Source of the DNA: Anaerolineae bacterium | Lineage (GTDB): Bacteria > Chloroflexota > Anaerolineae > Aggregatilineales > Ch27 | Direction: 5' to 3' | Length of the DNA stretch: 64,000 bases | Assembly: GCA_013178165.1 (NCBI GenBank) | Contig: JABLXG010000003.1 | Location: 39,711-103,710 of the forward strand | Shown: piece by piece, positions 9,711 to 52,559 of the stretch | How the letters are laid out: every line of letters starts with the position of its first letter | Numbering within the stretch: the first letter of the stretch is position 1 | Position numbers and translations under genes: made by a program | The notes under the pieces: generated by a model | Databases searched by the model: none | Told to the model about the DNA's origin: nothing | The model's input: the letters and a program-made list of their open reading frames with translations, nothing else

Positions 9711-9735
9711 GATCTTGAAAAAGGGGCGAACTGCT

Positions 9736-35183: not shown

Positions 35184-37592
35184 TCACAGGCGGTTCTGCA
35201 GCAGGCACAAGGTCACGCCGTCCGCGCCACGCGCCCAGCACGGTGCAGCACCCGGCGCGGCTGCCACACTCTCAGCCCGTGCCAGCGCCTGCCCGTTGAC
35301 CATTACCGTCTCAACCTGCGGCGCGCCAGCCAGCGGCAGGACGCGCAGCAGGACAGCGGCCTTGGGCGAGTCGAGAGTCACAAGCAGCCTGCTGCCGTCG
35401 AAGGTCGCTTCCAGGTGGGTGACCCCGTCCGTATCGCGCAGGTCAAAGGCGGCCGATTCGAACAGGTATGCATCAAAGGTGACCACCGGGAACGGCTCAT
35501 CACTCAGGGAGAGCGTTGGCTCCACGGTAGGGATCAGGGCGTTAGCCCGCACATACAGCGGCAGGGTTTCCAGCGGGGCTTCCACTGTACGCACCGTTGG
35601 CCCGGCAATCACCTCATGCATCCAGAAGTCCACCCAGCGCCCGGCGGGGAAGTACACAGGGCGCCGCCCCTCGCGGTTGTAGATCGGGGCAACCATCAGT
35701 TCGGCGCCAAAGCAATACTGCAGGTCAAGCGCATAGGTCAGCGGATCATCCAGGAATTCCAGCACCAGCGGACGCAACAGCGGCAGGCTGGTTTCCGCGG
35801 CCAGGGCCGCATAGCTGTAAATATAGGGCAGCAGGCGGTAGCGCAGGGCAACATAGCGGCGGAAGATCGCCTCAACCTGTTCGCCGTAGTCCCAGGGCAG
35901 GCGCGTGGTCATCCCGTGAGCGCGGGCCAGCGGGGAGAACAGCCCGAATTGCGCCCAGCGGATATACAGATCGGGCGTCGGCTGCTTGTGAAAGCCGCCG
36001 ATATCGTGGCTCCAGAAGGCATGCCCGCACAGGCCCAGGCTCAACCCACCACGCAGGGTAGAAGCCAGCGCCGGGTAGGTGCAATCCGGATCGCCACCCC
36101 ATTGGGCCGCGTGGCGCTGGCCACCGGCATACGTGCTGCGTCCCCAGACCAGCCCGACATGGCCGGTCTCTTCCGCTGTGACTTCAGCCACGGCGTCGTT
36201 ATAGAGCAGCGGGTAGAGGTTGTGCAGCGTCTCGCCGCTCATGCCATTGTAGGCCACCACATCAGCGGGGACGCCCTCGCCAAAATCGGTCTTGAAGACA
36301 TCCACACCCATCCGCAGGTGAGGGCGAAGTAGTTCTTTGAACCAGGTCACCGCCTCCGGGTTGGTCATGTCGATGATTCCCACCGGCGGATGACCGCCGC
36401 TCCACAGGTCGCCCACCCAGGCGCGGCCATCACGCGTCTTCAGCAGGTAGCCTTTAGCTTCAGCCTCGGCAAAACGCTCACTCTGAATACCTAAATAGGG
36501 ATTCATCCACAGACAAACCCGATAACCTTCCTGGCGCAACTGACGCAGCAATCCCTCCGGGTCGGGGAACATGGCCGTGTCCCAGACCATATCCGACCAG
36601 CAGCCAAAGCGCTGCCAGTAGCAATCCAGGTGCAGCACATCGCAGGGCACTTCCCGCGCCCGCAATTCGCGGGCGCGGCGCAACACGTCATCGGCGCTAT
36701 CCGCTTTGAAGCCCGACGACATCCACAGGCCAAAGGCCCACTTAGGCGGCAGAATCGGCAGGCTGACCAGCCCGGCGTAACGGGTGATGATCGTCTTGAG
36801 GTCGGAACCGGCGATGACGTAGTAATCCAGCGCTGAATCCGGCACGATCACGGAAAACACCGAATGGCTGCTGGCAGCCATGTCAAAGCGAATGGGCGTG
36901 ACGCTATCGACAAACAGGCCGTAACGCCGGGTGCTGAGGAAGAATGGCACGTTCTTGTAAGCCCGCTCGCTGTGGACACCGAAGGCGTCGTAATTCCACA
37001 TGGCCAGGCGCTGGCCGCGCTTGTCGAATTCGGTGAACTTCTCCCCAAAACCGTAAAAGTGCTCGTCTGGTTCGGCGGTGAACGTATCATGGAAGGCGAC
37101 GCGCCGCCCCTCCACCATGCTGAAACCAAAAGGCAGGCCGGTCAGGCGGTCGGTCACATCACGGTCGTTGTATTCCTGGGAAAGCAGCGCCCGGCCATCG
37201 GCGTTGTAAAACGCGATGTGGAAGGGATCGAGCGCGATTTCTACGCGCAGATCCTGCCCTGTCAGCGTCACATGGCCGGGCCGCCGGGTTACCGTCACCA
37301 GCGGCGGCGGCGTGGCAGGAAGGCGGGCCAGCGTCACCCGCTCCGGCGCGGAATCAGCCCCTTCCAGCAGGACACGGGCCACGCCCGGCGCAACGATAGT
37401 CACCGCGATACGGACGGTATCGCCGGTCTGTGCCCGACCGCTCAGAACAACGCCCGCCGCCTCCTCCGCACTGAACGCAGCGCGGACAACATAGGCCGGT
37501 TCCTGTGGATCATCCGGGCGGCGGATCGGCAGGGGCGGTAATTCCGCCGGGAATCTGACATACGGTACCAGCGGGTTGTCGAAAACCATCAT
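35184..37592 (-). CDS. GH31 alpha-xylosidase/alpha-glucosidase (YicI-like)
   Basis: HLDCYWQRFGCWSDMVWD...FPDPEG...WMNPYLG...GVDVFKTDFGE aligns block-for-block with E. coli YicI, from memory. Confidence 0.9.
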   Translation of the reverse strand: MMVFDNPLVPYVRFPAELPPLPIRRPDDPQEPAYVVRAAFSAEEAAGVVLSGRAQTGDTVRIAVTIVAPGVARVLLEGADSAPERVTLARLPATPPPLVTVTRRPGHVTLTGQDLRVEIALDPFHIAFYNADGRALLSQEYNDRDVTDRLTGLPFGFSMVEGRRVAFHDTFTAEPDEHFYGFGEKFTEFDKRGQRLAMWNYDAFGVHSERAYKNVPFFLSTRRYGLFVDSVTPIRFDMAASSHSVFSVIVPDSALDYYVIAGSDLKTIITRYAGLVSLPILPPKWAFGLWMSSGFKADSADDVLRRARELRAREVPCDVLHLDCYWQRFGCWSDMVWDTAMFPDPEGLLRQLRQEGYRVCLWMNPYLGIQSERFAEAEAKGYLLKTRDGRAWVGDLWSGGHPPVGIIDMTNPEAVTWFKELLRPHLRMGVDVFKTDFGEGVPADVVAYNGMSGETLHNLYPLLYNDAVAEVTAEETGHVGLVWGRSTYAGGQRHAAQWGGDPDCTYPALASTLRGGLSLGLCGHAFWSHDIGGFHKQPTPDLYIRWAQFGLFSPLARAHGMTTRLPWDYGEQVEAIFRRYVALRYRLLPYIYSYAALAAETSLPLLRPLVLEFLDDPLTYALDLQYCFGAELMVAPIYNREGRRPVYFPAGRWVDFWMHEVIAGPTVRTVEAPLETLPLYVRANALIPTVEPTLSLSDEPFPVVTFDAYLFESAAFDLRDTDGVTHLEATFDGSRLLVTLDSPKAAVLLRVLPLAGAPQVETVMVNGQALARAESVAAAPGAAPCWARGADGVTLCLLQNRL

Positions 37593-37619: not shown

Positions 37620-38720
37620 TTAGCGGCGAAGATGGACACCACACGAGCGCCGGACGATCAGGCGCGTGGGCAGAATGATCTGCTGCGGCCCGATGGCCTC
37701 GCCCTGAATGCGGTTTATCAGAATCTCAACCGCCGTCCGGCCAATATCGATCGCTGGCTGGGCGACCGTGGTCAGGGGCACTTCCAGGTGAGAGGTAAAA
37801 TCCAGGTTGTCGAAACCGACCACAGCCAGGTCTTCCGGGATGCGCATACCGACACGCCGGGCAGCCTCGTAGACTGCCAGCGCGGTCTGATCGTTAGCGG
37901 CCAGCACCGCCGAGATGCGCGGCTCCTGTTCCAGAAAGCGGCATAGCGGCTCGCGATCGATGGCCGGGTAGCTTTCCACTTCCAGCACCAGCGCCGGATC
38001 AAGGGGGATGCCCGCCTCGGTCAGCGCCCGCTGATAGCCAGCCAGGCGATGCTCGATGCTGATCGACGGGTCCCGCCAGGCGATGAACCCGATTCGGCGA
38101 TGGCCAAGATACAACAGATGTTGCGCTGCTCGCAACATCCCACCGAAATGATCAGACATGACATAGTCGGTGACCACCCCGCGCAGGTAACGATCGATCA
38201 ACACCACGGGGTAGCTGGAACGCACCAGGCTGGCGATCGGCTCCACATGCAGCGAATCTACCGGGTAGATGACCACCCCGGCCAGGTTATGAGCCACCAG
38301 GTCGTTCAACACCTGGGCCTGGCGGTCCGGGTCGTTTTCCACATGCTTGAAGGTCACCGATAACCCGCGCCGGGAAGCCGCTTCCTCCACGCCTAGCAAG
38401 ATCGTCGACACAAACGAATCACGCACATAAGGCACGACAAAACCGATCTGGCGGGTGGAATCGACCTGGGTTCGGGGCTGCTTGCCATCCCAGAGCACAA
38501 AGGTACCCCGCCCGCGCTCGCGCCGGATGTATCCGTCCGCTTCCAGATCAGCCAGCGCCTGACGGATGGTTCCCCGCGCAACGCCGAATTCTTTACATAA
38601 TTCCGGCTCCGGCGGCAGGCTATCCCCCGCCTTCAGCTCGCCACTCAGGATGCGCTGCGTGAGCAGGGCGGCGATCTGCAGGTAGAGCGGCTCGCGTGCG
38701 TCACGCTTCAGTTGGGTCAT
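37620..38720 (-). CDS. AraR-type transcriptional regulator (GntR wHTH plus LacI/PBP1 sugar-binding domain)
   Basis: N-terminus PLYLQIAALLTQRILSGELKAGDSLPPEPELCKEFGVARGTIRQALADLEADGYIRRERGRGTFV is a GntR domain. It is followed by a roughly 280-aa periplasmic-binding-protein-like domain. Confidence 0.88.
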   Translation of the reverse strand: MTQLKRDAREPLYLQIAALLTQRILSGELKAGDSLPPEPELCKEFGVARGTIRQALADLEADGYIRRERGRGTFVLWDGKQPRTQVDSTRQIGFVVPYVRDSFVSTILLGVEEAASRRGLSVTFKHVENDPDRQAQVLNDLVAHNLAGVVIYPVDSLHVEPIASLVRSSYPVVLIDRYLRGVVTDYVMSDHFGGMLRAAQHLLYLGHRRIGFIAWRDPSISIEHRLAGYQRALTEAGIPLDPALVLEVESYPAIDREPLCRFLEQEPRISAVLAANDQTALAVYEAARRVGMRIPEDLAVVGFDNLDFTSHLEVPLTTVAQPAIDIGRTAVEILINRIQGEAIGPQQIILPTRLIVRRSCGVHLRR

Positions 38721-38917: not shown

Positions 38918-39949
38918 ATGAAGAAGATCGTTTGTTTTGGGGAGATCATGCTCCGGCTCTCGCCGCCGGGCTTCCAGCGTTTCGTACAGGCTTCCAGCTT
39001 TGACGTGACCTTCGGCGGGGGCGAAGCCAACGTCGCCGCCTCGCTCAGTGGCTTTGGCCTGCCCACGGAATTCGTCACCCGCCTGCCCGCCCACGAGATC
39101 GGCGACGCCTGCCGGGACTTCCTGCGCCGATACGGCATCGGCACAACCCATATCGTGCGCGGCGGCGACCGGCTGGGCATCTATTTCCTGGAGATGGGCG
39201 CTGCGCAGCGTGGCAGCAAGGTCATCTACGACCGCGCCGGATCGTCCTTTGCGACCATCGAGCCGGGCATGATCGATTGGCATGCTGCCTTCGCCGATGC
39301 AGACTGGTTCCACTGGACGGGCATCACCCCGGCGGTCTCCCGCGGGGCAGCGGAGGCGCTGAGCGAAGCCATCAGCGCGGCCCGCGCCAGAGGACTCACC
39401 ATCTCCTGCGACCTCAACTACCGCAAGAAGCTGTGGAAGTGGGGACGAACGGCCAGCGAAGTCATGCCGGAGCTGGTCAGCCAGTGCGACATCGCGATCG
39501 GCAACGAAGAAGATGCAGACAAGGTCTTCGGGATCAAAGCGCCCGATGCCGATGTCACGGCGGGCCGGGTAGAAGCGGCCTCTTACGTCAGCGTATGCGA
39601 GCAGCTCAAGGCTCGCTTCCCCAACCTGCAGACTATCGCCATCACCCTGCGCGGCTCAATCTCGGCCAGCCATAACCGCTGGAGCGCGCTCCTGTGGCAT
39701 GACGGTCAGGTTTACACCACGCCCGGCTATGAGATCACCCCGATCGTCGACCGCGTCGGCGGCGGCGATAGTTTCATGGGCGGTCTGATCTACGGCCTCA
39801 AGACCTACGAGAGCAAGCAGAAAGCGCTGGACTTCGCCGTGGCCGCTTCCTGCCTCAAGCACACCATCTTCGGCGACTTCAACCTGGTTAGCGTAGCCGA
39901 AGTTGAGACGCTGATGAAGGGTGACGCCTCCGGGCGGGTCAGCCGCTGA
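38918..39949 (+). CDS. kdgK: 2-dehydro-3-deoxygluconokinase (PfkB family)
   Basis: [21 protein letters not shown]...FGGGEANVA is the typical KdgK N-terminus. GGGDSF motif near the C-terminus. Confidence 0.88.
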
Positions 39950-39984: not shown

Positions 39985-41001
39985 ATGAAAGCCGTGGTCT
40001 TCACCGGCCCGGAGCAGATCAACATCACACGCGTGCCCGATCCCACCCCTGCGCCGGATGAGGTCGTGATCCGTGTCGCCCAGGCAGGCATCTGCGGCAC
40101 AGACGTGCACATCTACCGCAACGAATACCTGTCCGACTTCCCGCTGATCCCCGGCCACGAGTTCGGGGGAACGGTGGTCGCCATGGGGCAGGAAGCTGGC
40201 AGCGACCTGGCGGTCGGGGATCGCGTGGCGGCTGACCCCAACCTGTACTGCATGCACTGCGACTTTTGCCGCAACGAGCAGGCCAACCACTGCCGCAACT
40301 GGCAGGGCGTAGGAGTCACCCGGGATGGAGCCTTCGCTGAATACGTGGCCGTCCCGGCGCGGGCCTGCTACCGCCTGCCGGAGTCCATCAACGACACGGC
40401 GGCGGCTTTTGTGGAGCCGCTGGCCTGTGTGGTGCATGCCCTCAAGCGCCTGCCGGTCAGCCCGGCTGATCGGGTGCTGATCATTGGCGCGGGGCCGATG
40501 GGGTTGCTGCTGGTGCAGGCGCTGCGCCATGGCGGAGCCTCCGACATCACCGTACTGGAAAAGCAGCCCGCCCGGCTGCAACTGGCCGCTGAGATGGGCG
40601 CGGACGCCCTGATCCCCGCTGGCGAGGATCAGACGGAGATGCTGCGGGCGCGGGCACCTTATGGGTACGACGTCGTGATCGACGCCACTGGTGTGCCGGC
40701 GGTCATCGAAAGCGCCTTCGCCTACCTCAGGCCGCGCGGGCGCTTCCTGCAGTTCGGCGTCACCCCCCGGAACGCCCGGATCCAGATCAGCCCCTACGAT
40801 CTGTTCCACAACGACTGGACGATCATCGGCTCGTTCGCCCTGTGCTATACCTTCCTGCCGGCCATCGACTGGCTGGCAAACGGCGTCATCCGGGTTGAGC
40901 GGCTGGTCAGCGATATCGCGCCACTGGAGGACTTCGCTGACGTGTTCCACCGCTTTGCGGCAGGCGAAACACTTAAGGTACACATCCGCCCGGCAGGCTG
41001 A
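39985..41001 (+). CDS. zinc-dependent MDR alcohol/polyol dehydrogenase
   Basis: [16 protein letters not shown], the structural-zinc Cys cluster [15 protein letters not shown] and GAGPMG are present. Confidence 0.88.
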
Positions 41002-41066
41002 GCCAGTCCGGCCAGATCGGTATTCGCCCGGTTGGTCCGCCCTGGCCCGGCAAGAGCCAGGAATCA

Positions 41067-41096
41067 AGGAGCCTGCCCGTGTGGGAGCAGGCTCCT
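41067..41096. terminator. 10-bp stem-loop between convergent ADH and isomerase genes
   Basis: AGGAGCCTGC (41067..41076) pairs with GCAGGCTCCT (41087..41096). Confidence 0.4.
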
Positions 41097-41129
41097 GATC
41101 CGTTGCGCCGGTGTTCTGAAGGGGATGTG

Positions 41130-42782
41130 CTACAGGTTGACCGTCCCGCACAGGTGCACCTGCACGCCCATCGCGTCAAACATGGCCGCCTTGGCCGCCA
41201 GCGCCCGGTCGGCATCGGCGGCTGAGGGCGCGTAAGCGACCTGGATGTGATTGGCCTTGTGTCGGGCCATCAGCTGGTCGCGGCTCACCCCGTGCAGCAC
41301 GGCGTGCATGATCGGCCATTGCGGCGTGGTGGCCTGCCAGCGACGTTCTGTTTCTTCACGCGGCAACCTGACGGCCGTCCCGCGCCCCAGGTCGGCGTGC
41401 AACGCGCCGCCCATCACATATACCCGGCTCCAGACGATCTCGCCGGGCTTGCTGACGCCCTTGATCGTGCCGCCGCCCAGGCGGAAGTACATCGGCGGCT
41501 GGCGCTCGCTGCTGGCCCCGGCGTAGCCGCCCTCCAGATGTGAAGGCGGTACCGCGCCGGAGATCATGAAGACCCACACGAAGTCATCCACGCCGTCGCC
41601 GCGGTAGTGCTCGCCCCAGCGCACGTCATGCAGGGTAGTCGCCGGGTCAAAGCCCATTGCCGTCCATACGCGGTTGGTGACCAGCGCATCGACCGCTGCG
41701 CCTTCATCCACCTCGTTGAAGTGCGGCAGGGGCCGACCCGCGTACAGTTCCTTGCCGGTACGGGGATCGTAGACCGGCGGACGCTCGACGTTATTGAGCA
41801 GCCCTTCAGCCAGATCGGAAGCCGGGGCCATGTCCTTGAGACCCTGCTGGTACTGGATGCCGATCGCGTCGCAGCCGAAGTCATGGGCGATCCGCATCGC
41901 CGCGATGTACATCTTGCACTGTTCCAGAATCTGGCCGTCGGTGAGATCGGTTTCCTCGTTTGGCCCGGTCACGAAGGTCATCCCCCGCGCGTCCAGCCAG
42001 TCACGGACGGCCTGCGCCTCCGCGTCGGAAACCTGTCGCATGGCGGCCACCAGCGCCGACTGGCTCAGGCGCTCCTTGTACAGACCAGCCGGGTTGAGCA
42101 GTTCATCGTCGATGATAGCGTTGTACATGCCCATGCAGCCTTCGTCAAAGATGCCCAGGATGGCCTTATCATGGGCGATCTGACGGGCCAGAGCGCGGCC
42201 CAGCGCCGCCTCCGCCGCCGGCAGCCGGGCGGGATCAAGATCGCGGACATGGCTGAGATCGTGATCGATCTTGCCTTCACGCAACCACTGGCGGATGCCC
42301 CGGAGGAAATACTCATCCGTGAAGTCAACGCTCCAGATCGTGCTGTAGTTGACGCCCATCTTGGTCAGCGAGCCGTTCAGGTTCAGCAACCCGACCAGCC
42401 CCGGCCACTGACCGCTCCAGTTGGCTACCGTGAGGATTGGCCCCCGGTGGCTGCGCAGCCCGGCCAGCACATGGTGGCTGTACTGCCACACCGATTCGGC
42501 CACGATCAGGCGTGCGTCCGGGTGAATGTGCTTGAAGACATCCATGCCCATCCGCTGGCTGGAGATAAAGCCATGCTTCTCAACCGGATCGTAGGGGTGG
42601 CCGCGGCGCACGGTATAGCCTTCCCGCGCAAACGCGGCGATCACCCGCCGTTCCATGTCTTCCTGGGCCGGCCAGCACATCTGGTTGGCCGAGAGGCGCA
42701 GATCGCCGCTGGCAACCAGGATGATCTCTTTTTCGCCGACAGGCGCCGGAGTCTCTAGCTGTGGCAAGGCATAGGCCATCAT
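41130..42782 (-). CDS. L-fucose-isomerase-family aldose-ketose isomerase
   Basis: 550 aa. N-terminal ILVASGDLRLSANQ...HGFISSQRMG...TVANWSGQWPGLVGLLNLNGSL follows the FucI-family domain order, from memory. Substrate unknown. Confidence 0.7.
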   Translation of the reverse strand: MMAYALPQLETPAPVGEKEIILVASGDLRLSANQMCWPAQEDMERRVIAAFAREGYTVRRGHPYDPVEKHGFISSQRMGMDVFKHIHPDARLIVAESVWQYSHHVLAGLRSHRGPILTVANWSGQWPGLVGLLNLNGSLTKMGVNYSTIWSVDFTDEYFLRGIRQWLREGKIDHDLSHVRDLDPARLPAAEAALGRALARQIAHDKAILGIFDEGCMGMYNAIIDDELLNPAGLYKERLSQSALVAAMRQVSDAEAQAVRDWLDARGMTFVTGPNEETDLTDGQILEQCKMYIAAMRIAHDFGCDAIGIQYQQGLKDMAPASDLAEGLLNNVERPPVYDPRTGKELYAGRPLPHFNEVDEGAAVDALVTNRVWTAMGFDPATTLHDVRWGEHYRGDGVDDFVWVFMISGAVPPSHLEGGYAGASSERQPPMYFRLGGGTIKGVSKPGEIVWSRVYVMGGALHADLGRGTAVRLPREETERRWQATTPQWPIMHAVLHGVSRDQLMARHKANHIQVAYAPSAADADRALAAKAAMFDAMGVQVHLCGTVNL

Positions 42783-42855
42783 TTCTCCTCCTTATCACTT
42801 CCCGCGGCAGCAGTCCCGCGCCGGGATAGCCAGCGCCACCGATCTGCGGGCCAGT

Positions 42856-43524
42856 CTACCGCCGGACCCGCCCTTCGAACGGGATACGATCCCACCTGCG
42901 CTCAAAGTCCTCGATCCAGGCGTCGGTCAGATCACTCTTGAACATCTGTTGCAGGACATCGTAGAACACCACAATGGCGTGTGCCCCGGCCAGCAGGCAG
43001 GCTTCCGCCTGGGCCGGATTGCGGACGCTGGCGGCGACGATCTGTGTGGGGATGTCATGAAGGGTGTAGAGTGTGGCGATGTCCTCGATCAGGCCAGCCG
43101 CATCCTGGCCGGCGCTCTCGATGCGGCCATAGTACGGGGCCACATACGCCGCCCCCGCCGCCGCCGCCAGAAAGGCCTGATTCAGGCTGCTCACCGCTGT
43201 GACCAGCGGCCTGACGCCCTCCTGCGCCAAGCGGTTAGCCGCCGCGATGCCATCGGGCGTGGCCACCAGCTTGGGCAGGATGCGGGGCGAGATGCGACGC
43301 AGCACATCCATCTCGCGCAGGTAGGCGTCCACATCCGGGCCATGCAATTGCACGAAAACGGGCACGCTGACCCGCCGGCAGGTCTCCGCCACCACATCTT
43401 CCAGCGTCCGCCCGCCCGCCGTCCAGTCCGCGATAATGATCGGATTGGTGGCCACCGCCGCGGCGACGCCGCTTTCCACCGCGGCCACCACTTCGTCAAT
43501 CGTGCCGGAAATCCACAGTTCCAA
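42856..43524 (-). CDS. transaldolase-superfamily protein, short FSA/TalC subfamily with FSA-type residues
   Basis: Aligns with E. coli FsaA from memory: (M)ELWISG.., ATNPI, VFVQLHG (Gln), ILPKLVATPDG (Schiff-base Lys), APYYGRI (Tyr). I chose TTG 43524, which is 9 nt after GGAGG. The ORF extends to ATG 43656 without an SD. Confidence 0.75.
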   Translation of the reverse strand: MELWISGTIDEVVAAVESGVAAAVATNPIIIADWTAGGRTLEDVVAETCRRVSVPVFVQLHGPDVDAYLREMDVLRRISPRILPKLVATPDGIAAANRLAQEGVRPLVTAVSSLNQAFLAAAAGAAYVAPYYGRIESAGQDAAGLIEDIATLYTLHDIPTQIVAASVRNPAQAEACLLAGAHAIVVFYDVLQQMFKSDLTDAWIEDFERRWDRIPFEGRVRR

Positions 43525-43667
43525 AGTGCTCAACCTCCTGCCGTCACCACAATATTGCTGGGCGCGGCCCTCATCAGCCCGCAAACCGGACCGGATTCGA
43601 TTTACAATGGGAGCAGGTTCCATGAGACCGGGGGGCATCCCGCCGGCCCTGCGCAAAGGAGCGCCCG

Positions 43668-44087
43668 ATGCTCACTTCCCGCCTGATCCACCCGGAGATT
43701 CTTGCTGCGCTGGCCGCTTCTGGTCATGGCGGCAAAATCCTGATCGCCGATGGCAACTACCCCTTCAGCACGCGAGCCAACGCCGCTGCCCGTCGAGTAT
43801 ACCTCAACCTGTGTCCCGGCAAACTGAGCGTGACTGATGTGCTGGAAGTGCTGGTGGGAGCGATCCCGATCGAGGCGGCAGATGTGATGGTCACCGATAG
43901 CGGCCAGGAGCCGGAGATCTATGCCGACTTCCGCCGCCTGTTGCCCGGTCTGGCGCTGACAGCCAACCAGCGGGCCGACTTCTACCGCAAGGCTCACGAC
44001 CCTGATGTGTGCCTGGTCATCGCCACCGGCGAACAGCGGCTCTTTGCCAACATCCTGCTGACCATCGGCGTCGTCCCGCCCGGCTGA
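43668..44087 (+). CDS. RbsD/FucU-family sugar mutarotase
   Basis: LIHPEILAALAASGHGGKILIADGNYP...LFANILLTIGVV is typical of FucU/RbsD. 139 aa. Confidence 0.85.
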   Translation: MLTSRLIHPEILAALAASGHGGKILIADGNYPFSTRANAAARRVYLNLCPGKLSVTDVLEVLVGAIPIEAADVMVTDSGQEPEIYADFRRLLPGLALTANQRADFYRKAHDPDVCLVIATGEQRLFANILLTIGVVPPG

Positions 44088-44134
44088 GCGATCACCGGCC
44101 AGGCCGGAATACCCAGCCTGCGGACAACACCGAT

Positions 44135-44524
44135 TCAGGCCGCCGCTTCCCAGGCTGCCCGCAACCAGCCGCGGACCTCTTCATCAATCCCGGCGAGATC
44201 GTACAGCTCCAGGTGATGGGTGAAACGCCCGGGCGCAGGCTCTACGATCTCTTTCCAGCGCGGCGAAGAGTCTCGCCACGGCAGGGCGATGGTCAGCACC
44301 ACCGGCGCGGTGCGGCCCTTCAGGTAGCGGTCGGGCATCCAGACCCAGGCAAAAGCACGCCGTCGGCGGAAAGCGATCTCGCTCCTGGTGACGCGGATGC
44401 TCGTCCCACCGAGGGCCTCCACCTCCGCCCGGATGGCCAGAAAAAGCTTTTCCGGCAGGGGCTTGCCGGAAAAGAACACTTCGGGTGTCAGGAGTTGCTC
44501 CAAGCGCCTTCTCCCTGGCCGCAT
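44135..44524 (-). CDS. DUF5655-like small protein
   Basis: 129-aa ORF. The pattern (F.AIRAEVEALGG....VTRSEIAFRRRRAFAWVW) recalls DUF5655. Family call from memory only. Confidence 0.55.
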   Translation of the reverse strand: MRPGRRRLEQLLTPEVFFSGKPLPEKLFLAIRAEVEALGGTSIRVTRSEIAFRRRRAFAWVWMPDRYLKGRTAPVVLTIALPWRDSSPRWKEIVEPAPGRFTHHLELYDLAGIDEEVRGWLRAAWEAAA

Positions 44525-44577
44525 TCAGGCATCCGGGGGCCTGCCCCCATCCCGGAACAGGCCCTCGCCAGAACGCT

Positions 44578-45255
44578 TTACTTCCTGGCCCGGATAGCCC
44601 GGATCAGTTCCAGAGCCGCGCGGGTGGCTTCCGTGATTTTCTGGTAATCGCCAGCGGCGATCCAGTCGCTACGCACCAGCTGGCTGCCCATCCCCACGCA
44701 GGCGACACCCGCCTCAAACCAGCCGCGCAGGTTGGCTTCGTCCGGGCTGACACCGCCAGTCGGCATGATCCGCGTCCAGGGGCGCGGCGCGCGCACCGCC
44801 TTGACGAACTCCGGCCCGCCGGCGGTATTGCCGGGGAACAGCTTGACGATCTCCACGCCCCACTCTTCGGCCTGGGCCACTTCGGTGAGCGAGCTGCAGC
44901 CGGGGAAGTAAGCCACTTTGCGCCGGTTGCACAGCCGGGCTACTTCTTCGTTGAAGACCGGGCCGACGACGAAGTTGGCCCCGTGCGCCAGGTACAGCGC
45001 CGCTGTCGGCGCGTCTTCCACCGACCCCACCCCGATGATCATCTCCGGGTGAGCTTTGGCGCAGTGCTTGATCAGGGCACTGAAGACCTCGATGGCGAAG
45101 TCGCCGCGGTTGGTGAATTCCAGCATCCGGCAACCCCCAGCAGCCAGCGCCGCCACCACCTGCTTGGCAACCTCGATATCCCCGTGATAGAAGAGGGGAA
45201 CCATGCCATCGGCCAGGGCCGTGTTGTACACCGTCAACCGATCAAAACGTGCCAC
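44578..45255 (-). CDS. eda: 2-dehydro-3-deoxyphosphogluconate / 4-hydroxy-2-oxoglutarate aldolase
   Basis: 225 aa. The MLEFTNRG...VGSV...FVVGP...PGC.S..E...A...G..IVKLFP pattern is that of KDPG aldolases. Confidence 0.85.
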   Translation of the reverse strand: MARFDRLTVYNTALADGMVPLFYHGDIEVAKQVVAALAAGGCRMLEFTNRGDFAIEVFSALIKHCAKAHPEMIIGVGSVEDAPTAALYLAHGANFVVGPVFNEEVARLCNRRKVAYFPGCSSLTEVAQAEEWGVEIVKLFPGNTAGGPEFVKAVRAPRPWTRIMPTGGVSPDEANLRGWFEAGVACVGMGSQLVRSDWIAAGDYQKITEATRAALELIRAIRARK

Positions 45256-45269: not shown

Positions 45270-46805
45270 CTAATCCAGGTGAGCTTCAGCGATCCGGTCA
45301 TAAACCGGCACCAGCGCCTGGTACGCCGCCTCAAAGATCGGGTAGATTTCCTCGTACACTGCCTGCGCCGCCGGATCCGGCGTGAACACCTCGACCACCC
45401 GGTTCATCGTCTCGATCATACTGAAGTCCGGGTACAGGCCAACGCCGACGCCCCCGGCCAGCGCCGCGCCCATTGATGTGGCCTCCTCCAGGATCGCCAG
45501 CCGATGCACCGGGATACCGTAGATATCGGCCATCATCTGGTTCCAGAAGCGCCCACGCGCTCCGCCCCCGATCACGCGCATCGCCTCGATCGACGTGCCC
45601 TGCGCCCGGAAGGCGTCCAGGATCACCCGCAGGTTCATGGTCACACCTTCCAGCACAGCACGGATCATATCAGCGCGGGTATGGCGGACGGTCAGGCCGA
45701 TGAACGCGCCGCGGGCGCGAGGATTCCAGCGCGGGCTGCGCTCGCCCAGCAGGTACGGCAGGTAGAGCAGGCCGTTGGCGCCCGGTGGCGACTTTTGGGC
45801 CTGCAGGTTCATCAGTTCGTACGGGCTGACTCCCAGCGCGGCGGCGGCTTCCACCTCCGGCTGGCACAGCCGGTCGCGCGTCCACTGGTAAGAGGCACCG
45901 GCGGCCTGCATTGTACCGGTCGGCATGACCATCCCCGGCACCACATGACCGAACGTGAAGGTCTTGTAGTCGGGATCGTAGATCGGCTTCGGCGTGGTCA
46001 GGGCGATCCAGGAGGATGAGCCGACGTAGTTATAGGCCGAACCATCGCGGATCACGCCTGCCCCTGCCGCCGCGCAGGCCCCATCCCCACCACCGATCAC
46101 AACCGGTGTCCCGGCGGGTACACCCACCTCCTCCGCCACAGCGGGCAGCACTTCGCCCACCACTTCGATCGAGCGGCGGATGGTCGGGAGTTGCTCCTCG
46201 CTCAGCCCCACCGCATCCAGGATACGCGCCGACCAGGCATCCCGCTCCAGATCGTACAGGTTCATGCTGGAGGCATCAGAGGGGTCGGTCACGAAAGCGC
46301 CGGTCAGGCGGGCCACCATGGAGTCTTTGGCGTGGACGAACTTGTAGGTAGCCCGGTAAATATCCGGCTGGTTGTCGCGCAGCCACAGGATTTTGGTCAG
46401 TGAATAAGAACTGCTCAGGCGGTGCCCGGTGATGCGGTAGACCTCCTCAAACGGGACACGCTCCCCCACCCAGGCCGCCTGTTCCACCGAGCGGACATCC
46501 GCCCAGATGATCGCGCTACGCAGGGGACGTGCCCGGCGGTCCAGCGGTACACAGCCCATCATCTGCCCGCTGAAGGTGATACAGGCGATCTCGTCTCCGC
46601 GCACGCCGGTCTGGCTCAGCAACGCCCGTGTGGATGCGCATACCGCCTGCCACCAGTCCTCCGGGTTCTGCTCAGCCCAGCCGGTCTGGGCGTATTCAGT
46701 GGCGTAAGCGTAAAATGCACTGCCCACCAGCCTGCCCTCACGGTCGTAGAGCGTTGCCTTGTTGCCGGTGGTGCCCAGGTCATGCGCCAGCACGTAGAGC
46801 TTCAT
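45270..46805 (-). CDS. FGGY-family carbohydrate kinase (xylulokinase-like)
   Basis: MKLYVLAHDLGTTGNKATLYD and the GGGDGACAAAGAG motif. ATG 46805 follows GGGGGAG. The longer ORF (to 46940) overlaps the upstream gene. Confidence 0.88.
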   Translation of the reverse strand: MKLYVLAHDLGTTGNKATLYDREGRLVGSAFYAYATEYAQTGWAEQNPEDWWQAVCASTRALLSQTGVRGDEIACITFSGQMMGCVPLDRRARPLRSAIIWADVRSVEQAAWVGERVPFEEVYRITGHRLSSSYSLTKILWLRDNQPDIYRATYKFVHAKDSMVARLTGAFVTDPSDASSMNLYDLERDAWSARILDAVGLSEEQLPTIRRSIEVVGEVLPAVAEEVGVPAGTPVVIGGGDGACAAAGAGVIRDGSAYNYVGSSSWIALTTPKPIYDPDYKTFTFGHVVPGMVMPTGTMQAAGASYQWTRDRLCQPEVEAAAALGVSPYELMNLQAQKSPPGANGLLYLPYLLGERSPRWNPRARGAFIGLTVRHTRADMIRAVLEGVTMNLRVILDAFRAQGTSIEAMRVIGGGARGRFWNQMMADIYGIPVHRLAILEEATSMGAALAGGVGVGLYPDFSMIETMNRVVEVFTPDPAAQAVYEEIYPIFEAAYQALVPVYDRIAEAHLD

Positions 46806-46825
46806 AGGTTCTCCCCCGCTGGCGG

Positions 46826-47830
46826 CTAGCTGCGCCGGCGCGTGTAACGGGCAATGAAATTGTAGGGCGAAGGCAACGGAATGGCGCTGGCCTCGTCCAG
46901 ACGGGCCACTTCCTCCGGCGTCAGCTTCCAGCCGACGCACCCCAGATTCTGCTCCAGCTGATCGAGGGTGCGCGCGCCGAAGATGGGCGCGGTCACACCG
47001 GGTTTGTGTAGCACCCAGTTGAGCGCAACCTGGGCGGGAGTCTTGCCCCGTTCCTGGGCGATCTCGCGCAGCACGTCGATCGTGCGCCAGGTCAGCTCGT
47101 TCTCGCGCTGCTCAGGCAGGTCATCCCAGCGGTCGCCCCGACCCACCCGGCTATCCGGCGGCGGGGGCGCGTTACGGTGATACTTGCCGGTCAGCCAGCC
47201 GCCCGCCAGCGGCGACCAGGCAATCACACCGATGCCCTCCTCCTGGCACATCGGCAGCAGTTCCCACTCTGTGCTGCGCACCAGCAGGCTGTACTCCGGC
47301 TGGATGCAGTCAAAGCGCGCCCAGCCACGCTGCTGGCTGAGCATGATCGCCTTCATCAGCTGGCCAGGGGTGTAATTGGAGGCCCCGATATAGCGCACCT
47401 TGCCCGCCCGCACCAGATCGTTGAGCGCCTGCAGGGTTTCATCCAGGGGGGTCGAGGAGTCAAAGCAGTGAGTCTGGTAGAGGTCGATATAATCCGTGTT
47501 CAGCCGGCGCAGGCTGATGTCAACCTGTTCGAAGATATGCTTGCGGGAGAGGCCGGTATCGTTCGGTCCTTTACCGGTCGGGAAGAACACCTTGGTGGCA
47601 ATCACCAGTTGCGAACGGTTTCCCCGCCGTTTGAGCCAGCTGCCGAGGATAGTCTCCGACTGGCCCTCATTATAGATGTTGGAGGTGTCAAAGAAGTTAC
47701 CGCCAGCCTCCACAAAACGATCCGCCATGGCATGGGAAGCAGCCTCATCTGCACCCCAGCCAAAGGTCTGTGTGCCCATGCACAGCTCGGAGACCTTCAG
47801 GCCGGTGCGTCCCATGAACCGATACTCCAT
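46826..47830 (-). CDS. aldo/keto reductase
   Basis: MEYRFMGRTGLKVSELCMGTQTFG...FFDTSNIY...IGASNY are classic AKR blocks. ATG 47830 follows GGAGG. Confidence 0.9.
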   Translation of the reverse strand: MEYRFMGRTGLKVSELCMGTQTFGWGADEAASHAMADRFVEAGGNFFDTSNIYNEGQSETILGSWLKRRGNRSQLVIATKVFFPTGKGPNDTGLSRKHIFEQVDISLRRLNTDYIDLYQTHCFDSSTPLDETLQALNDLVRAGKVRYIGASNYTPGQLMKAIMLSQQRGWARFDCIQPEYSLLVRSTEWELLPMCQEEGIGVIAWSPLAGGWLTGKYHRNAPPPPDSRVGRGDRWDDLPEQRENELTWRTIDVLREIAQERGKTPAQVALNWVLHKPGVTAPIFGARTLDQLEQNLGCVGWKLTPEEVARLDEASAIPLPSPYNFIARYTRRRS

Positions 47831-48050
47831 TGGCATCCTCCTGCTGGATTCTGTCCGATCAAAGGGCGCAAGCACTGATCAGGCCGGAGCGAAAGCAGCA
47901 CAGCCGTCTATCTGGCGCCGCCGGGGGGCTGTACGCCCGGAACGCCATGTGGAGGCGCCTGCCTAAGCATGAGGCAGCTCCGCCGCCAGTACCATCACAG
48001 GCCCCCGGCAGGCAGATGATTCTGACCCCATGCCTGGATCGGAAACGCCT

Positions 48051-48094: not shown

Positions 48095-48104
48095 CAGGAA
48101 AGCC

Positions 48105-48114
48105 TGTAATTACA
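48105..48114. promoter_or_regulatory. palindrome TGTAATTACA (GntR-type GT-N-AC operator) just downstream of the -10
   Basis: Perfect 10-bp palindrome 11 nt after TATAAT. The position is typical for autorepression. Confidence 0.45.
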
Positions 48115-48132
48115 AGATAACAGGATGACAGA

Positions 48133-48960
48133 TTGAGCGGCACAATCGACCGCAGCAGTCATATCCCCTATTACGTTCAGGTCATGGATGCCATCCGGGA
48201 GCGCATCCGGCAGGGGGACTGGCAGCCCGGCCATCAGCTTCCCGGCGAGCCTGACCTTTGCCGCGTTTTCAACGTCAGCCGGACGGTGATCCGTCAGGCG
48301 TTGCAGGCGCTGATGTACGAAGGGCTGATCATTCGTCACAAGGGCAAAGGCACCTTCGTCGCCGAGCCGAAGATTAGCGGCGGCCTGGTGCAACGGTTGA
48401 CCGGTTTCTATGAGGATATGCTCAGCCACGGCTACCGGCCGGTTTCCAGGGTGCTCAAGCAACAGACTATCCCCGCCAGCCCCCGGATCGCAGAGTATCT
48501 GGCGATTCCGGTCGGGACCGACGTGATCGAAATCGAGCGGCTGCGCCTGGTCAACGAGGAACCGATTGTGCTGGTCTGGACGTACGTGCCTTATACCCTG
48601 TGTCCTGGCCTGCTTCAGGCCGACCTGACCCACCAGTCACTATACGGCTTTCTGGAGCAACAGTGCCAGCTGGTGATCGCGCGCGGGCGGCGCATCATTG
48701 AGGCCGTCCCGGCCAATGAGTATGAATCCGAACTGCTGCAGGTCCCCAGGGCAGCCCCGCTGATCCTGCTGGACAGCGTCAGTTACCTGGAGGATGGCAC
48801 ACCAGTCGAGTACTATCACGCACTGCACCGCGGCAACCGCACACGCTTTGAGGTTGAGCTGGTGCGCGTGCGTGAGCATGGCGAGGAACGGGTGGTCCTG
48901 GGCGGGCACCCGCCTAACCTGCCCATCCCCAGCCGGATTGTCTTTCCACCGGAATCATAA
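48133..48960 (+). CDS. GntR-family regulator, HutC subfamily (wHTH plus UTRA domain)
   Basis: IPYYVQVMDAIRERIRQGDWQPGHQLPGEPDLCRVFNVSRTVIRQALQALMYEGLIIRHKGKGTFV, followed by a UTRA-like effector domain. TTG start. Confidence 0.88.
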   Translation: MSGTIDRSSHIPYYVQVMDAIRERIRQGDWQPGHQLPGEPDLCRVFNVSRTVIRQALQALMYEGLIIRHKGKGTFVAEPKISGGLVQRLTGFYEDMLSHGYRPVSRVLKQQTIPASPRIAEYLAIPVGTDVIEIERLRLVNEEPIVLVWTYVPYTLCPGLLQADLTHQSLYGFLEQQCQLVIARGRRIIEAVPANEYESELLQVPRAAPLILLDSVSYLEDGTPVEYYHALHRGNRTRFEVELVRVREHGEERVVLGGHPPNLPIPSRIVFPPES

Positions 48961-49083
48961 AATCGTGCCGTGCTGGCCCACCAGTTGTGGCCAGCCGAAA
49001 AGAAAGGAGGTAACCAGGCCAACTGAAATGCTCTGTCACGGAAAATGACCCGTTATCCTGCTTTAACCGTTGGAGGAGAAGGT

Positions 49084-50553
49084 ATGAAAAAGCTTCTGGT
49101 CTTGATGCTGATTGTGACCCTGGCGGTTGGCTTTGCGCCCGCCGCGGCCCAGGGCGGCCAGTTCGCCGGCCAGACGGTCGTGGTCGTCACCCAGACCGGC
49201 CGTTCCATCGGCGGCCCGGTTGAGGACTATGCTCCGGAATGGGAAGCAGCCACCGGCGGCAATGTCGAGCTGCAGCAGTTCGCGTTCGGCGAGCTGTACG
49301 AGAAGATGATTGCTTCCTTCGAAACCGGGGCGATCGACTATGACGTGCTGATCTTCCCGGCGGACTGGGCTGGCGACTTCATGGCCCCCGGCTACCTGGA
49401 ACCAATCCCCCAGGAGATCCTCGACAAGCTGGAGCCAGAGGACATCATCCCGCTCTACGCCGACCGCATCACCGCCTGGGGTGAGACCCGCTACGCCCTG
49501 CCATATGACGGCGACGCCCACATGCTGTATTACCGCAAAGACTTGATCTTCAACGAAGAGTACTCGGCAGAATTTGAGGCCCAGTACGGCTATCCGCTGA
49601 AGGAGCCGGCGAGCTGGGATGAGTACTATGACATGGCCGAGTTCTTCAACGGCAAGGAAGTGGAGACCGCGGGCACAGTTGCGCCCATCTATGGCTTGGC
49701 CGAAGCCATGCGCCGCGACGCCCAGAGCTACTGGGTCTTCCTCTCCCATGCCGCCGGCTATGGCAAGATCCCCGGTAATCCGTGCTTCTTCTTCAGCTGT
49801 GACGACATGACCCCGCAGGTCAACAACCCCGGCTGGGTCCGCGCTCTGGAAGAGTACGTGGCCAGCCGCTCCTACGGCCCGCCGGAGATGATCAACTGGG
49901 ACGTGGCGGATACCCGCGTACAGTTCCCGGCTGGCGTCTCTGTCTTCAACATCGACTGGGGTGATGTTGGCCCGATCTCGATCAACCCGAATGCGTCGGT
50001 GATCGGCGGCGTGACCGGCTTCGCCCCGCTGCCCGGCGGCGTCCAGTACTGGGACTACGTCAAGGGCGAATGGGTGAATGAGTACAACCAGGCGCCGTTC
50101 ATCGCCTTCGGTGGCTGGATCATCGGCGTCGCCGCTGGCAGTGACGTCAAAGAAGCGGCCCTGGACTTCGCCGCCTTCATGGCCCGTCCGGAGTTGGTCC
50201 GTGTCCTGGCCGTGACGCCCGACACCGGCATCAACCCCTCGCGCTACAGCCAGCTGGAAAACATCGACCTGTGGGTCAACGCTGGCTTTGACGAGGAAAG
50301 CGCCGCTGACTACGTCGACGCTATCCTGAACACGATCAACCATCCGAATGCGGTGCTGGACCTGCGCATCCGTGGTTCTGCGGAATACCTGCAGACACTG
50401 GATGTGGAGATCGCCCGCGCCGTGGAAGGTGAAATCTCCGCTCAGGAGGCGCTGGACAACGTCGCTGCGCACTGGAACGAGATCACCGACCGCTATGGCC
50501 GTGACAGCCAGCTGGCTCAGTACCGTGCTTCTGTCGGCTGGACCGGCGAGTAA
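49084..50553 (+). CDS. CUT1-family sugar ABC transporter substrate-binding protein
   Basis: MKKLLVLMLIVTLAVGFAPAAAQG signal peptide. 489 aa. GGAGGAGAAGG SD before ATG 49084. Confidence 0.88.
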   Translation: MKKLLVLMLIVTLAVGFAPAAAQGGQFAGQTVVVVTQTGRSIGGPVEDYAPEWEAATGGNVELQQFAFGELYEKMIASFETGAIDYDVLIFPADWAGDFMAPGYLEPIPQEILDKLEPEDIIPLYADRITAWGETRYALPYDGDAHMLYYRKDLIFNEEYSAEFEAQYGYPLKEPASWDEYYDMAEFFNGKEVETAGTVAPIYGLAEAMRRDAQSYWVFLSHAAGYGKIPGNPCFFFSCDDMTPQVNNPGWVRALEEYVASRSYGPPEMINWDVADTRVQFPAGVSVFNIDWGDVGPISINPNASVIGGVTGFAPLPGGVQYWDYVKGEWVNEYNQAPFIAFGGWIIGVAAGSDVKEAALDFAAFMARPELVRVLAVTPDTGINPSRYSQLENIDLWVNAGFDEESAADYVDAILNTINHPNAVLDLRIRGSAEYLQTLDVEIARAVEGEISAQEALDNVAAHWNEITDRYGRDSQLAQYRASVGWTGE

Positions 50554-50573
50554 GCCTTTCCGTTAGTTCTGGC

Positions 50574-50618
50574 AAGGCGCTATACTGTCTATACCATCAG
50601 GCGGTATAGCGCCTTTTT
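50574..50618 (+). terminator. intrinsic terminator/attenuator after the SBP gene
   Basis: AAGGCGCTATAC (50574..50585) pairs with GTATAGCGCCTT (50604..50615), followed by a TTTTT run to 50618. Confidence 0.7.
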
Positions 50619-50678
50619 ATTACCCTGCCGTGCCAGGTTTCTTTGTTGATTGACGACTATTCTTTCAAGGAGGGCGCG

Positions 50679-51683: not shown

Positions 51684-51698
51684 AAGAGGGAGGCAGCC

Positions 51699-52559
51699 AT
51701 GACACGCAGAAAATGGTGGCAGTCAGCCCTGCTCTATGCGGTGGTGATCTTCTGGTGTTTCATCACCCTCTTCCCCTTCTACTGGCTCTTCACCACTTCG
51801 CTGAAGCAGCCGCTGCATATCAGCCGGGGACCCAAGTACTTCCCCTTCGTCGACTACCAGCCGACCCTTGAGCACTGGCAATACCTGTTCCGCGAACAGG
51901 GCGAAACCACCATCCGACACTTCCGGAACAGCTTTATTGCCGCCTCCGGCAGCACCGTGCTGGCTGTCCTGATCGGCTCGATGGCGGGCTACGGCCTGTC
52001 GCGCTTCCGGTATAGCTGGCGTATCCCACGCTGGAAGAACAACGACATCGCCTTCTGGATCATCTCCCAGCGCTTCTTACCACCGGCGCTATTCGTCGTG
52101 CCTTTCCTGATGCTTTACAGCGCGCTCGGCCTGGTGGATACCCACATCGGCCTGATCATCGTGTACACGATGTTCAACATCCCCTTCGCCGTGTGGATCA
52201 TGCGGGACTTCTTCAACACCCTGCCGACCGACCTGGAGGAAAGCGCCCTGGTCGATGGCGCCACACGCTGGCAGGCCTTTGTGCGCATCGTACTCCCCCT
52301 GAGCGCACCCGGCCTGGTTTCGGTGGCGATTTTCTCCTTCGTGTTTTCCTGGAACGAATTCCTCTACGCCCTGATGCTGACCAACTTCCAGGCGATCACC
52401 ATGCCCGTCCTCATTGCTGCCCAGAACAACACCCGTGGCATCCAGTGGTGGTTCATTTCCGCCCTGACCCTGACAGCGGTGGCGCCGGTCGTGCTGGTTG
52501 GCTTACTGCTGGAACGGTTCATCACACGCGGGCTGGTGGCCGGGGCGATCAAAGGCTAG
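51699..52559 (+). CDS. sugar ABC transporter permease (MalG-like)
   Basis: EAA loop [22 protein letters not shown]. 286 aa. GAGGGAGG SD. Confidence 0.88.

Follow-up and report, generated by a model that had tools for sequence, protein, structure and literature searches.

An Asp6-less FSA-type aldolase clade of Chloroflexota and its kinase- and isomerase-containing gene neighbourhood

The 64,000-nucleotide stretch of an Anaerolineae genome analysed here (hereafter the window) carries, co-directional on its minus strand and 73 nt apart, a gene for a 222-residue protein of the transaldolase/fructose-6-phosphate aldolase (TAL/FSA) family (positions 42,856–43,524) and, downstream of it, a gene for a divergent 550-residue protein with the predicted fold of the aldose–ketose isomerases FucI and AraA (41,130–42,782). 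The first of these is confirmed, by every discriminator residue in the alignment, as an FSA-type aldolase and not a transaldolase; database searches place it in a small, rare clade confined to Chloroflexota, in which the aspartate at position 6 of Escherichia coli FsaA has been deleted. Its constant operon partner is a XylB-like FGGY kinase, the isomerase being a looser one. That the aldolase performs one step of a HutC-controlled sugar-catabolic gene set, cleaving a phosphorylated sugar, is a proposition we consider about evenly balanced; we would give an even chance, too, to the set having the composition proposed here, namely an ABC importer, an RbsD/FucU protein, the FucI/AraA-fold isomerase, the FGGY kinase, an Eda-type aldolase, a cupin-type phosphoglucose isomerase (PGI) and oxidoreductases. 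The source genome (4.19 Mb, 98.6% complete; the window, of about 64% GC, sits on its contig C23) has as its nearest counterparts in public records metagenome-assembled genomes of Chloroflexota/Anaerolineae.

A first-pass annotation, made from the letters alone, had noted a short transaldolase-superfamily gene upstream of, and co-directional with, a FucI-like gene, and had named for its product a Schiff-base lysine, a glutamine in place of the transaldolase glutamate and a tyrosine in place of phenylalanine. Both genes are there, the first matching Pfam TAL_FSA (PF00923) over residues 7–201 with 98.5 bits (cut-off 27), and scoring 167 bits, under the cut-off of 245.95, on the NCBIfam equivalog fsa_talC_mipB (TIGR00875). 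Its start is a TTG nine nucleotides after AGGAGG, and homologues likewise begin MELWI. Alignment to the authentic E. coli FsaA and TalB sequences of the K-12 RefSeq record, together with relatives, upholds all three residues, with neither Glu nor Phe at the discriminator positions: Lys85 (ILPKLVAT) aligns with FsaA K85 and TalB K132, the Schiff-base lysine on β-strand 4 that is invariant in all rows; Gln59 (VFVQLHG) aligns with FsaA Q59 and TalB E96; and Tyr131 (APYYGRI) aligns with FsaA Y131 and TalB F178. Thr109 is also present, Ala129 is of the FSA type (Ser in TAL-type enzymes), and a phosphate triad, R134/S166/R168, aligns with R134/S166/K168 of FsaA and R181/S226/R228 of TalB. The observation that the annotation made here was thus correct and is confirmed not to be a chance resemblance.

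K85 of E. coli FSA acts as the covalent catalyst and Y131 as the proton shuttle, the catalytic water is held by Q59, T109 and Y131, phosphate is recruited by R134, S166 and K168, and D6 and N28 touch the donor-derived part and set donor scope; exchange of K168 for arginine, the TalB state, makes FSA bind phosphate more tightly (PMC13259622). Because the clade keeps the functional residues of FSA except D6 and has Arg at position 168, the window protein most likely still binds an anionic, probably phosphorylated, acceptor half, and it would be an active Schiff-base (class I) aldolase. The N-terminal aspartate, which the annotation had described as replaced, is indeed absent, but it has been deleted and not substituted: the Asp of the LDT motif (FsaA D6, TalB D17) meets a one-residue gap (ELWI-SGT), and beside the gap clade members have Ser, Glu or Ala, with no consistent acidic replacement. 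The donor or stereochemical preference of the enzyme may therefore have shifted.

Set against its best-known relatives, the protein resembles E. coli FsaA as a short TAL/FSA-family TIM barrel of 222 residues (FsaA has 220) with Lys85, Gln59, Thr109 and Tyr131 in common, the same donor-pocket residues Ala129, Leu107 and Ala165, and the phosphate-site residues Arg134 and Ser166. It departs from FsaA, to which it is 34% identical, in the deletion of Asp6, in the TalB-like Arg at position 168, in a loop inserted throughout its clade and bearing an invariant Trp34-Thr35, in the separate, long-stemmed position of that clade, and in genomic setting: fsaA stands alone, whereas the clade gene lies in an operon with kinase, regulator and transporter. 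With the short TalC-type transaldolases it shares size, fold family and phosphate site, but these have Glu, Ser and Phe for its Gln59, Ala129 and Tyr131 and keep the Asp; the conversions F178Y in TalB and E60Q/F132Y in TacTal reportedly switch transferase to aldolase activity. Sequence searches of the PDB find it equally remote from the transaldolase and FSA subtypes, the best matches being the transaldolases of Thermotoga maritima (1VPX, 121 bits) and Thermus thermophilus (1WX0, 116 bits), with FsaA at 96 bits.

All 13 aligned members of the clade share the Q59/K85/T109/A129/Y131 states and the gap at Asp6; R134 and S166 do not vary among them, and 12 of the 13 also have R168. Altogether 35 positions are invariant within the clade, including W4, I5, W34, T35, Q59, P84, K85, T109, Y131, R134 and S166, the kind of conservation that an active enzyme shows when selection maintains it. 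Among 5.8 billion proteins searched, about 43 clusters stand at or above 54% identity and one further cluster at 43%, every named one from Chloroflexota; a pattern scan gave 18 clade loci in 185,579 species genomes, and a scan of 241 million metagenome records gave 12. Among 150 genomes sampled evenly from the class, no clade member occurred; the matches there were canonical short transaldolases, some 35% identical. Maximum-likelihood analysis recovers the clade as monophyletic (support 100/99) on a long stem of 0.87; unrooted, the tree joins it to FsaA of E. coli and to short transaldolases of the Glu/Phe type (support 96/89), apart from the large FSA-type group of cyanobacteria and Thermaceae that has the Q/A/Y residues plus the Asp. 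The genome's other short TAL-family protein, encoded on contig C31 (L016:4488–5162, minus strand; numbers with the prefix L denote loci), keeps the Asp, the Lys and the Phe, has Trp aligned to Arg134 and Ala to Ser166, and sits on a tree branch of 1.51; its phosphate site looks altered.

The genes that travel with the aldolase were surveyed by tblastn of the window proteins against 26 distinct clade loci and from Pfam tables of public gene calls. Most constant among them is the XylB-like FGGY kinase (window 45,270–46,805, minus strand; 397.5 bits on TIGR01312 XylB, cut-off 380): an orthologue of 69–81% identity lies in the aldolase operon in 17 of the 26 loci, often 30–60 nt off, and elsewhere in the genome in four of the five tested genomes that have no adjacent copy. 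By score the kinase belongs with XylB (397 bits) and not with glycerol kinase (211 bits); in the PDB it comes closest to the xylulokinase of E. coli (2itm), and its closest characterised relatives are xylulokinase, LsrK and gluconokinase, enzymes that phosphorylate the distal primary hydroxyl. Its longest open reading frame (ORF; 45,270–46,940) runs 115 nt into the neighbouring aldo-keto reductase (AKR) gene; translation most likely starts at the ATG at 46,805, behind GGGGGAG and 20 nt past the AKR stop, which gives a protein of 511 residues, as in homologues.

In the window, the kinase gene is the middle one of an operon led by the AKR gene (46,826–47,875, minus strand; Pfam Aldo_ket_red, 291 bits; the nearest NCBIfam models, of the Tas and L-GAP (L-glyceraldehyde-3-phosphate) reductase type, are both under cut-off) and followed by a KDPG/KHG (Eda-type) aldolase gene (44,578–45,255, minus strand; NF005499, 334.6 bits, cut-off 275). 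Eda stands directly upstream of the aldolase gene in seven loci (L003, L021, L031/L122, L098, L120 and L124), and kinase, Eda and aldolase genes are contiguous in most loci other than those of the window lineage. In that lineage they are parted by a 129-residue DUF5655 ORF between Eda and RbsD/FucU (44,135–44,524, minus strand; 46.7 bits), with a terminator-like hairpin in its region at 44,474–44,447, and by the opposite-strand gene for an RbsD/FucU-family mutarotase or pyranase (43,668–44,087, plus strand; Pfam RbsD_FucU, 104.9 bits), which is divergent from the aldolase–isomerase pair.

Upstream of the kinase operon, on the plus strand, lie the genes for a GntR/HutC-type regulator with a GntR helix-turn-helix and a UTRA domain (48,133–48,960; Pfam) and for a CUT1 ABC importer comprising a 502-residue binding protein and two permeases (49,045–52,559; Pfam). 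Regulator and importer are divergent from the kinase operon in at least ten loci; the importer is syntenic and 60–79% identical in at least ten aldolase loci, and regulator orthologues elsewhere are divergent from the FGGY–aldolase operon. Between the regulator gene and the kinase operon, seven loci (the window, L017, L021, L024, L030, L032 and L034) have a palindrome, yTGTAATTACAr, at the same position and with a perfectly conserved core, TGTAATTACA; the window copy, CCTGTAATTACAAG (48,103–48,116), lies between the regulator gene and the AKR–FGGY operon, just after the −10 of the regulator promoter. We regard this palindrome, shared by distant Anaerolineae loci, as a candidate operator that would define one regulon. 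In L033, the variants TGTAATTATA and TGTAACTACA occur upstream of the zinc-dependent dehydrogenase gene and of the divergon of aldolase and substrate-binding-protein genes. Upstream of the window's own aldolase–isomerase pair, no match within two mismatches occurs outside coding sequence.

Further companions recur less regularly. A 138-residue glyoxalase-fold (VOC) protein is encoded next to the aldolase gene, or a few kilobases off, in 11 loci; a roughly 310-residue shikimate-dehydrogenase-like protein, with a weak PDB match to 5-ketofructose reductase, between kinase and aldolase genes in six; and a 287-residue xylose-isomerase-fold (AP_endonuc_2) protein beside the aldolase or isomerase gene in four, the window locus having none. 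The cupin PGI-family gene (window 52,619–53,200, plus strand; PF06560, 103 bits; single-copy in this genome) is syntenic in L006, L008, L021 and L118, and that for a D-2-hydroxyacid dehydrogenase of the glyoxylate/hydroxypyruvate reductase kind (53,246–54,223, plus strand; Pfam and NCBIfam) in L003, L006, L021 and L124. A PfkB kinase of the 2-keto-3-deoxygluconate (KDG)-kinase type, encoded in the window at 38,918–39,949 (plus strand; kinase half of NF041633, 516.8 bits), has a 79%-identical counterpart inside the AKR–FGGY–Eda operon of L120. Two loci have additions of their own. In L032 alone, a TauE/SafE exporter gene (9088–9891) lies between the FGGY kinase and aldolase genes, with a 2,671-residue ORF on the opposite strand just downstream (L032:12367–20382); in L002/L006 (GCA_054665355.1, BAAHIT010000003.1), an OMP-decarboxylase-family gene, of the hexulose-6-phosphate synthase or keto-gulonate-6-phosphate decarboxylase kind, and a SIS-domain gene are placed between the ABC importer and the cupin PGI.

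The first-pass annotation had treated aldolase and isomerase as a pair. A functional link between the two is supported, but their direct adjacency is limited to the window lineage (window, L017 and L118), and the kinase is the primary partner. In L124/L125, whose aldolase is 59% identical, a single operon runs FGGY–Eda–FSA–HADH–AKR–VOC–FucI-like; in L021 the FucI-like gene ends a same-strand run that includes the aldolase gene; and the two lie within 10 kb in L030, L033 and L034 and 11 kb apart in L002/L006. An isomerase orthologue (78–82% identity) is encoded elsewhere in all ten further aldolase-bearing genomes, against a background of 11 of the 150 genomes in the even sample of the class; since the ten are related to one another, this co-occurrence is supportive and not statistical proof.

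The label of FucI family, which the annotation had given to the 550-residue protein, falls short on sequence and stands on predicted structure. Its two Pfam Fucose_iso matches are under their cut-offs (27.2 against 29.3 bits and 22.5 against 28), and it matched no NCBIfam model and no PDB sequence, so that a fold prediction was needed. The AlphaFold2 model (pLDDT 80.8, pTM 0.87) has FucI, D-arabinose isomerase or AraA structures as all of its top 41 Foldseek matches (E values 1e-17 to 1e-12, 10–15% identity); a three-domain FucI/AraA fold holds for the model, and no substrate assignment follows from it. Invariant acidic and histidine residues of the family are E357, D359, D399 and H512; the Mn2+ ligands of E. 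coli FucI are E337, D361 and H528. The gene is single-copy in the genome and belongs to an unusually conserved family of more than 8,000 relatives at about 80% identity, mostly found without the FSA-type aldolase.

The company that this isomerase family keeps is varied: a class II aldolase and a 479-residue FGGY kinase in L007, an AraB-like ribulokinase and FucU in L109, the same XylB-like kinase, cupin PGI and ABC importer in L008, LutBC lactate-utilisation genes and FucU in L105, and an adjoining DUF2961/GH172 gene in L107. RbsD/FucU recurs beside the FucI-like gene in L006, L008, L105 and L109. GH172 includes exo-α-D-arabinofuranosidases (PMC10115798, PMC10509167). Given the GH172 context and the kinase types, D-arabinose (converted to D-ribulose) would be at least as good a candidate substrate as L-fucose. 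In the window, the isomerase gene is convergent with one for a zinc-dependent (MDR) polyol-type dehydrogenase (Zn-ADH; 39,985–41,001, plus strand; Pfam and NCBIfam), a pairing that recurs in L033 with a Zn-ADH of 61% identity. Between the two convergent genes, a GC-rich hairpin read from the sequence (41,067–41,096; AGGAGCCTGC-N10-GCAGGCTCCT) is the likely end of the aldolase–isomerase transcript; it has no T-run and a terminator scan gave no call there, and a promoter scan of 40,900–44,700 found nothing.

The route that we infer, in the order of its steps, the phosphorylated state of its substrate and the identity of its sugar, would run as follows. An imported aldose would be converted to a ketose by the FucI-like isomerase; in some genomes the ketose may then be adjusted by redox enzymes or by the xylose-isomerase-fold (TIM-barrel) enzyme, as a possible ketose 3-epimerase; the FGGY kinase would phosphorylate the distal primary hydroxyl; and the aldolase would split the phosphorylated sugar into a two- or three-carbon carbonyl compound held by Lys85 and a phospho-aldehyde such as glyceraldehyde-3-phosphate (GAP). 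Candidates for the unit held by Lys85, all non-phosphorylated, are dihydroxyacetone, hydroxyacetone and glycolaldehyde. The small carbonyl would finally be disposed of by the AKR, the 2-hydroxyacid dehydrogenase, the Zn-ADH and, in other genomes, the glyoxalase-fold protein.

A phosphorylated substrate is favoured because the anion site R134/S166/R168 is strictly conserved, and the phosphate would most obviously come from the XylB-like kinase encoded in the same operon; since this kinase is the constant operon neighbour, its action before the aldolase fits better than a dihydroxyacetone kinase acting after it. Stereochemistry constrains the choice of sugar. FucI-type isomerases yield 3R,4R ketoses, whereas TAL/FSA enzymes make and cleave the 3S,4R configuration, so that a direct hand-over of L-fuculose from isomerase to aldolase is unlikely: it would need a 3-epimerase, for which the AP_endonuc_2 proteins of four loci are candidates, or a detour through redox steps, the window's candidates for which are the AKR and Zn-ADH, or else the substrate would have to be an aldose phosphate instead. 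Candidate substrates that fit the stereochemistry of both families are D-arabinose-5-phosphate, which would give glycolaldehyde and GAP (the compounds from which FSA forms D-arabinose-5-phosphate), and ketose phosphates of the 3S,4R, fructose-6-phosphate type.

Several points weigh against this route. The accessory genes vary between loci (PTE lactonase, shikimate-dehydrogenase-like reductase, TauE, AP_endonuc_2, VOC), and several routes may make use of the aldolase. Since no Dak is present, dihydroxyacetone released by cleavage could instead be what the kinase phosphorylates. The core isomerase route does not need the aldolase, as the isomerase mostly occurs without it (as in the L007 and L109 contexts); and were the kinase product ribulose-5-phosphate or xylulose-5-phosphate, it would enter the pentose phosphate pathway directly and leave the aldolase without an obvious role. 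The aldolase-bearing genomes, moreover, are interrelated, and their ten-out-of-ten co-occurrence with the isomerase overstates independence.

One alternative is that the enzyme is a general fructose-6-phosphate aldolase, or serves dihydroxyacetone salvage (dihydroxyacetone + GAP ⇌ fructose-6-phosphate), a role that has been proposed for E. coli FSA, having been recruited beside Eda and the kinase, which would both deliver GAP, and not acting on the product of the FucI-like enzyme. We think this unlikely, though it draws on real features of the locus: the catalytic and phosphate residues are as in FsaA, the GAP-releasing Eda is encoded directly upstream of the aldolase in seven loci, a Dak-type dihydroxyacetone kinase (Dak1) was not found in the genome, and a cupin PGI in the same regulon suggests a fructose-6-phosphate intermediate; in E. 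coli, FSA is said to be one of the routes of dihydroxyacetone assimilation. The clade, however, is rare and patchy, and its strict co-occurrence with isomerase and kinase points to a dedicated peripheral pathway, while the deletion of Asp6 and the long stem (0.87) suggest a changed specificity. Nor does central metabolism have a gap to fill, the genome holding five matches to the phosphofructokinase (PFK) family and two further TAL-family genes; the five PFK-family matches also rule out FSA as a bypass for a missing PFK.

The annotation had itself offered a second alternative, which we hold to be distinctly improbable: that a (deoxy)aldose such as L-fucose is isomerised, that the aldolase cleaves the free ketose to dihydroxyacetone and a neutral aldehyde (lactaldehyde), and that the FGGY kinase then phosphorylates dihydroxyacetone, with reduction of the aldehyde by AKR or ADH. 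For this to work, L-fuculose would first have to be epimerised at C3 to 6-deoxy-L-sorbose. Its premises about the neighbourhood are sound, in that RbsD/FucU (beside the pair), AKR, Zn-ADH and FGGY kinase are all present and, as it had reported, a FucA-type class II aldolase is missing: there is no class II aldolase on the window's contig, and of two class II aldolase-family (PF00596) proteins in the genome neither reaches a FucA cut-off, one being an AraD-type epimerase (343.7 bits, cut-off 251) in an araBDA-like cluster and the other 3-oxo-tetronate-4-phosphate-decarboxylase-like (OxoTetrPhDc-like). In its favour, too, are the want of both FucA and Dak, the 43%-identical outgroup locus L005, which reads GH29 fucosidase–PfkB–FSA–FucU, the LutBC genes near the FucI-like gene in L105, the possible 3-epimerase AP_endonuc_2 in four loci, AKR and glyoxalase-fold neighbours suited to handling a C3 carbonyl, and the absence of Asp6, a residue that governs how the donor is recognised (PMC13259622), which could allow unusual substrates. 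The conserved phosphate triad, on the other hand, would be unexpected for a neutral acceptor; FucI-type products have, by established stereochemistry, the wrong C3 configuration for TAL/FSA enzymes; the window locus has no AP_endonuc_2; and the kinase scores as XylB-like, not as glycerol-kinase-like. Direct cleavage of a free 6-deoxy-ketose is accordingly disfavoured, and the kinase fits better before the aldolase than as a dihydroxyacetone kinase after it; the earlier interpretation was probably wrong on the unphosphorylated substrate and on the isomerase as primary partner. The classical FucI–FucK–FucA route is matched by the window in having a FucI-fold isomerase, an FGGY kinase, a FucU-type mutarotase and an aldolase step, but the window isomerase is only about 15% identical to FucI, its kinase is XylB-like (acting on the distal hydroxyl) and not FucK-like, and its aldolase is class I and FSA-type where FucA is class II and forms dihydroxyacetone phosphate (DHAP).

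A sulfoquinovose route resembling sulfo-TAL, in which the isomerase would give sulfofructose, the aldolase would cleave it to dihydroxyacetone and sulfolactaldehyde with the sulfonate held by the Arg/Ser/Arg site, and the sulfonate product would be reduced and exported, is very improbable. It would account for the retained anion site, sulfofructose has the 3S,4R configuration, the L032 TauE/SafE gene lies between kinase and aldolase genes, and sulfo-TAL pairs the same two families, FucI-family SqvD/SftI and TAL-family SqvA/SftT, on an anionic 6-substituted sugar, with variant clusters reported in Chloroflexi (PMC9594981). But the window enzyme is of the aldolase and not the transferase type, and neither window protein is a sulfo-TAL orthologue: the isomerase gives no match (E ≤ 1e-3) to the NCBIfam SftI model NF048012, which another isomerase of the genome does match, and the aldolase is nearer ordinary transaldolases (121 bits) than the sulfofructose transaldolase of Bacillus megaterium (85 bits). 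The GH31 hydrolase encoded nearby (35,184–37,592, minus strand) is YicI-like, with a four-residue deletion at the Tyr508 position as in YicI and a W-x-D-x-x-W segment; it scores 606 bits on the α-xylosidase model against 261 on YihQ and lacks the pattern of the YihQ sulfonate residues R301/W304/Y508. The window locus contains no sulfoquinovosidase, DUF4867 protein, sulfonate-processing gene, sulfonate exporter or sulfolactaldehyde reductase (the nearest YihU-like gene is on another contig); no DUF4867, SuyAB or sulfolactaldehyde dehydrogenase occurs among the genes annotated there; the genome has no homologue of YihS, YihR or YihO/P; TauE occurs in one locus only; and a route of this kind would leave two kinases without a function.

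Outside the conserved set, the GH31 α-xylosidase-type hydrolase sits right at the cut-off of its equivalog (NF007940, 606.2 bits against 606) and has next to its gene one for an AraR-type regulator (37,620–38,720, minus strand). The genome, in which XylA of neither the long nor the short type was found, still has XylB-type kinases along with this GH31 α-xylosidase. No anticorrelation can be drawn for the isomerase as a substitute for xylose isomerase, because the long type (TIGR02630) is absent from all 151 genomes considered (this one and the 150 of the class). A classical uronate route feeding KdgK and Eda is ruled out by the absence of UxaC and UxuA from the genome. The araBDA-like cluster, on contig C3 (L014:2780–13384), comprises a LacI regulator, a ribulokinase (788 bits), the AraD-type epimerase (344 bits), a 508-residue FucI/AraA-family isomerase, a ribose-type ABC importer and a second XylB (462 bits). 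The sole NCBIfam match of this isomerase is a sulfoquinovose-isomerase model at 74 bits (cut-off 700); it probably acts on L-arabinose, as a non-canonical isomerase of that sugar.

Biocatalysis makes heavy use of FSA-type aldolases; to our knowledge, their natural role has been unsettled since their discovery, E. coli fsaA being stand-alone and poorly expressed. The literature that could be searched turned up no description of this clade or cluster, and the papers listed in a search for FSA in Chloroflexota made no mention of FSA; what we describe is a new variant within a known kind of enzyme, and the conserved gene cluster around it likewise appears to be new. The data also bring into view a second family, the large and highly conserved FucI-fold isomerases with their more than 8,000 relatives. 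Asp6 is a hot spot for donor scope (PMC13259622), and a natural scaffold without it could have an unusual substrate range. We advance only tentatively the proposal that the clade provides the cleavage step of a kinase-dependent Chloroflexota sugar pathway, which would make it the first of the FSA type to have a defined physiological job. If it does, a class I aldolase releasing a non-phosphorylated donor would replace the usual class II, DHAP-forming enzyme, and the loss of Asp6 would retune its donor or stereochemistry; the reaction could be arabinose-5-phosphate to glycolaldehyde and GAP, downstream of D-arabinose or a Kdo-type substrate, or alternatively a ketose phosphate of 1-deoxy or tagatose configuration could be cleaved. 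The operon described here, conserved and regulated and with its kinase, importer and isomerase, gives a natural context in which the role of an FSA becomes testable.

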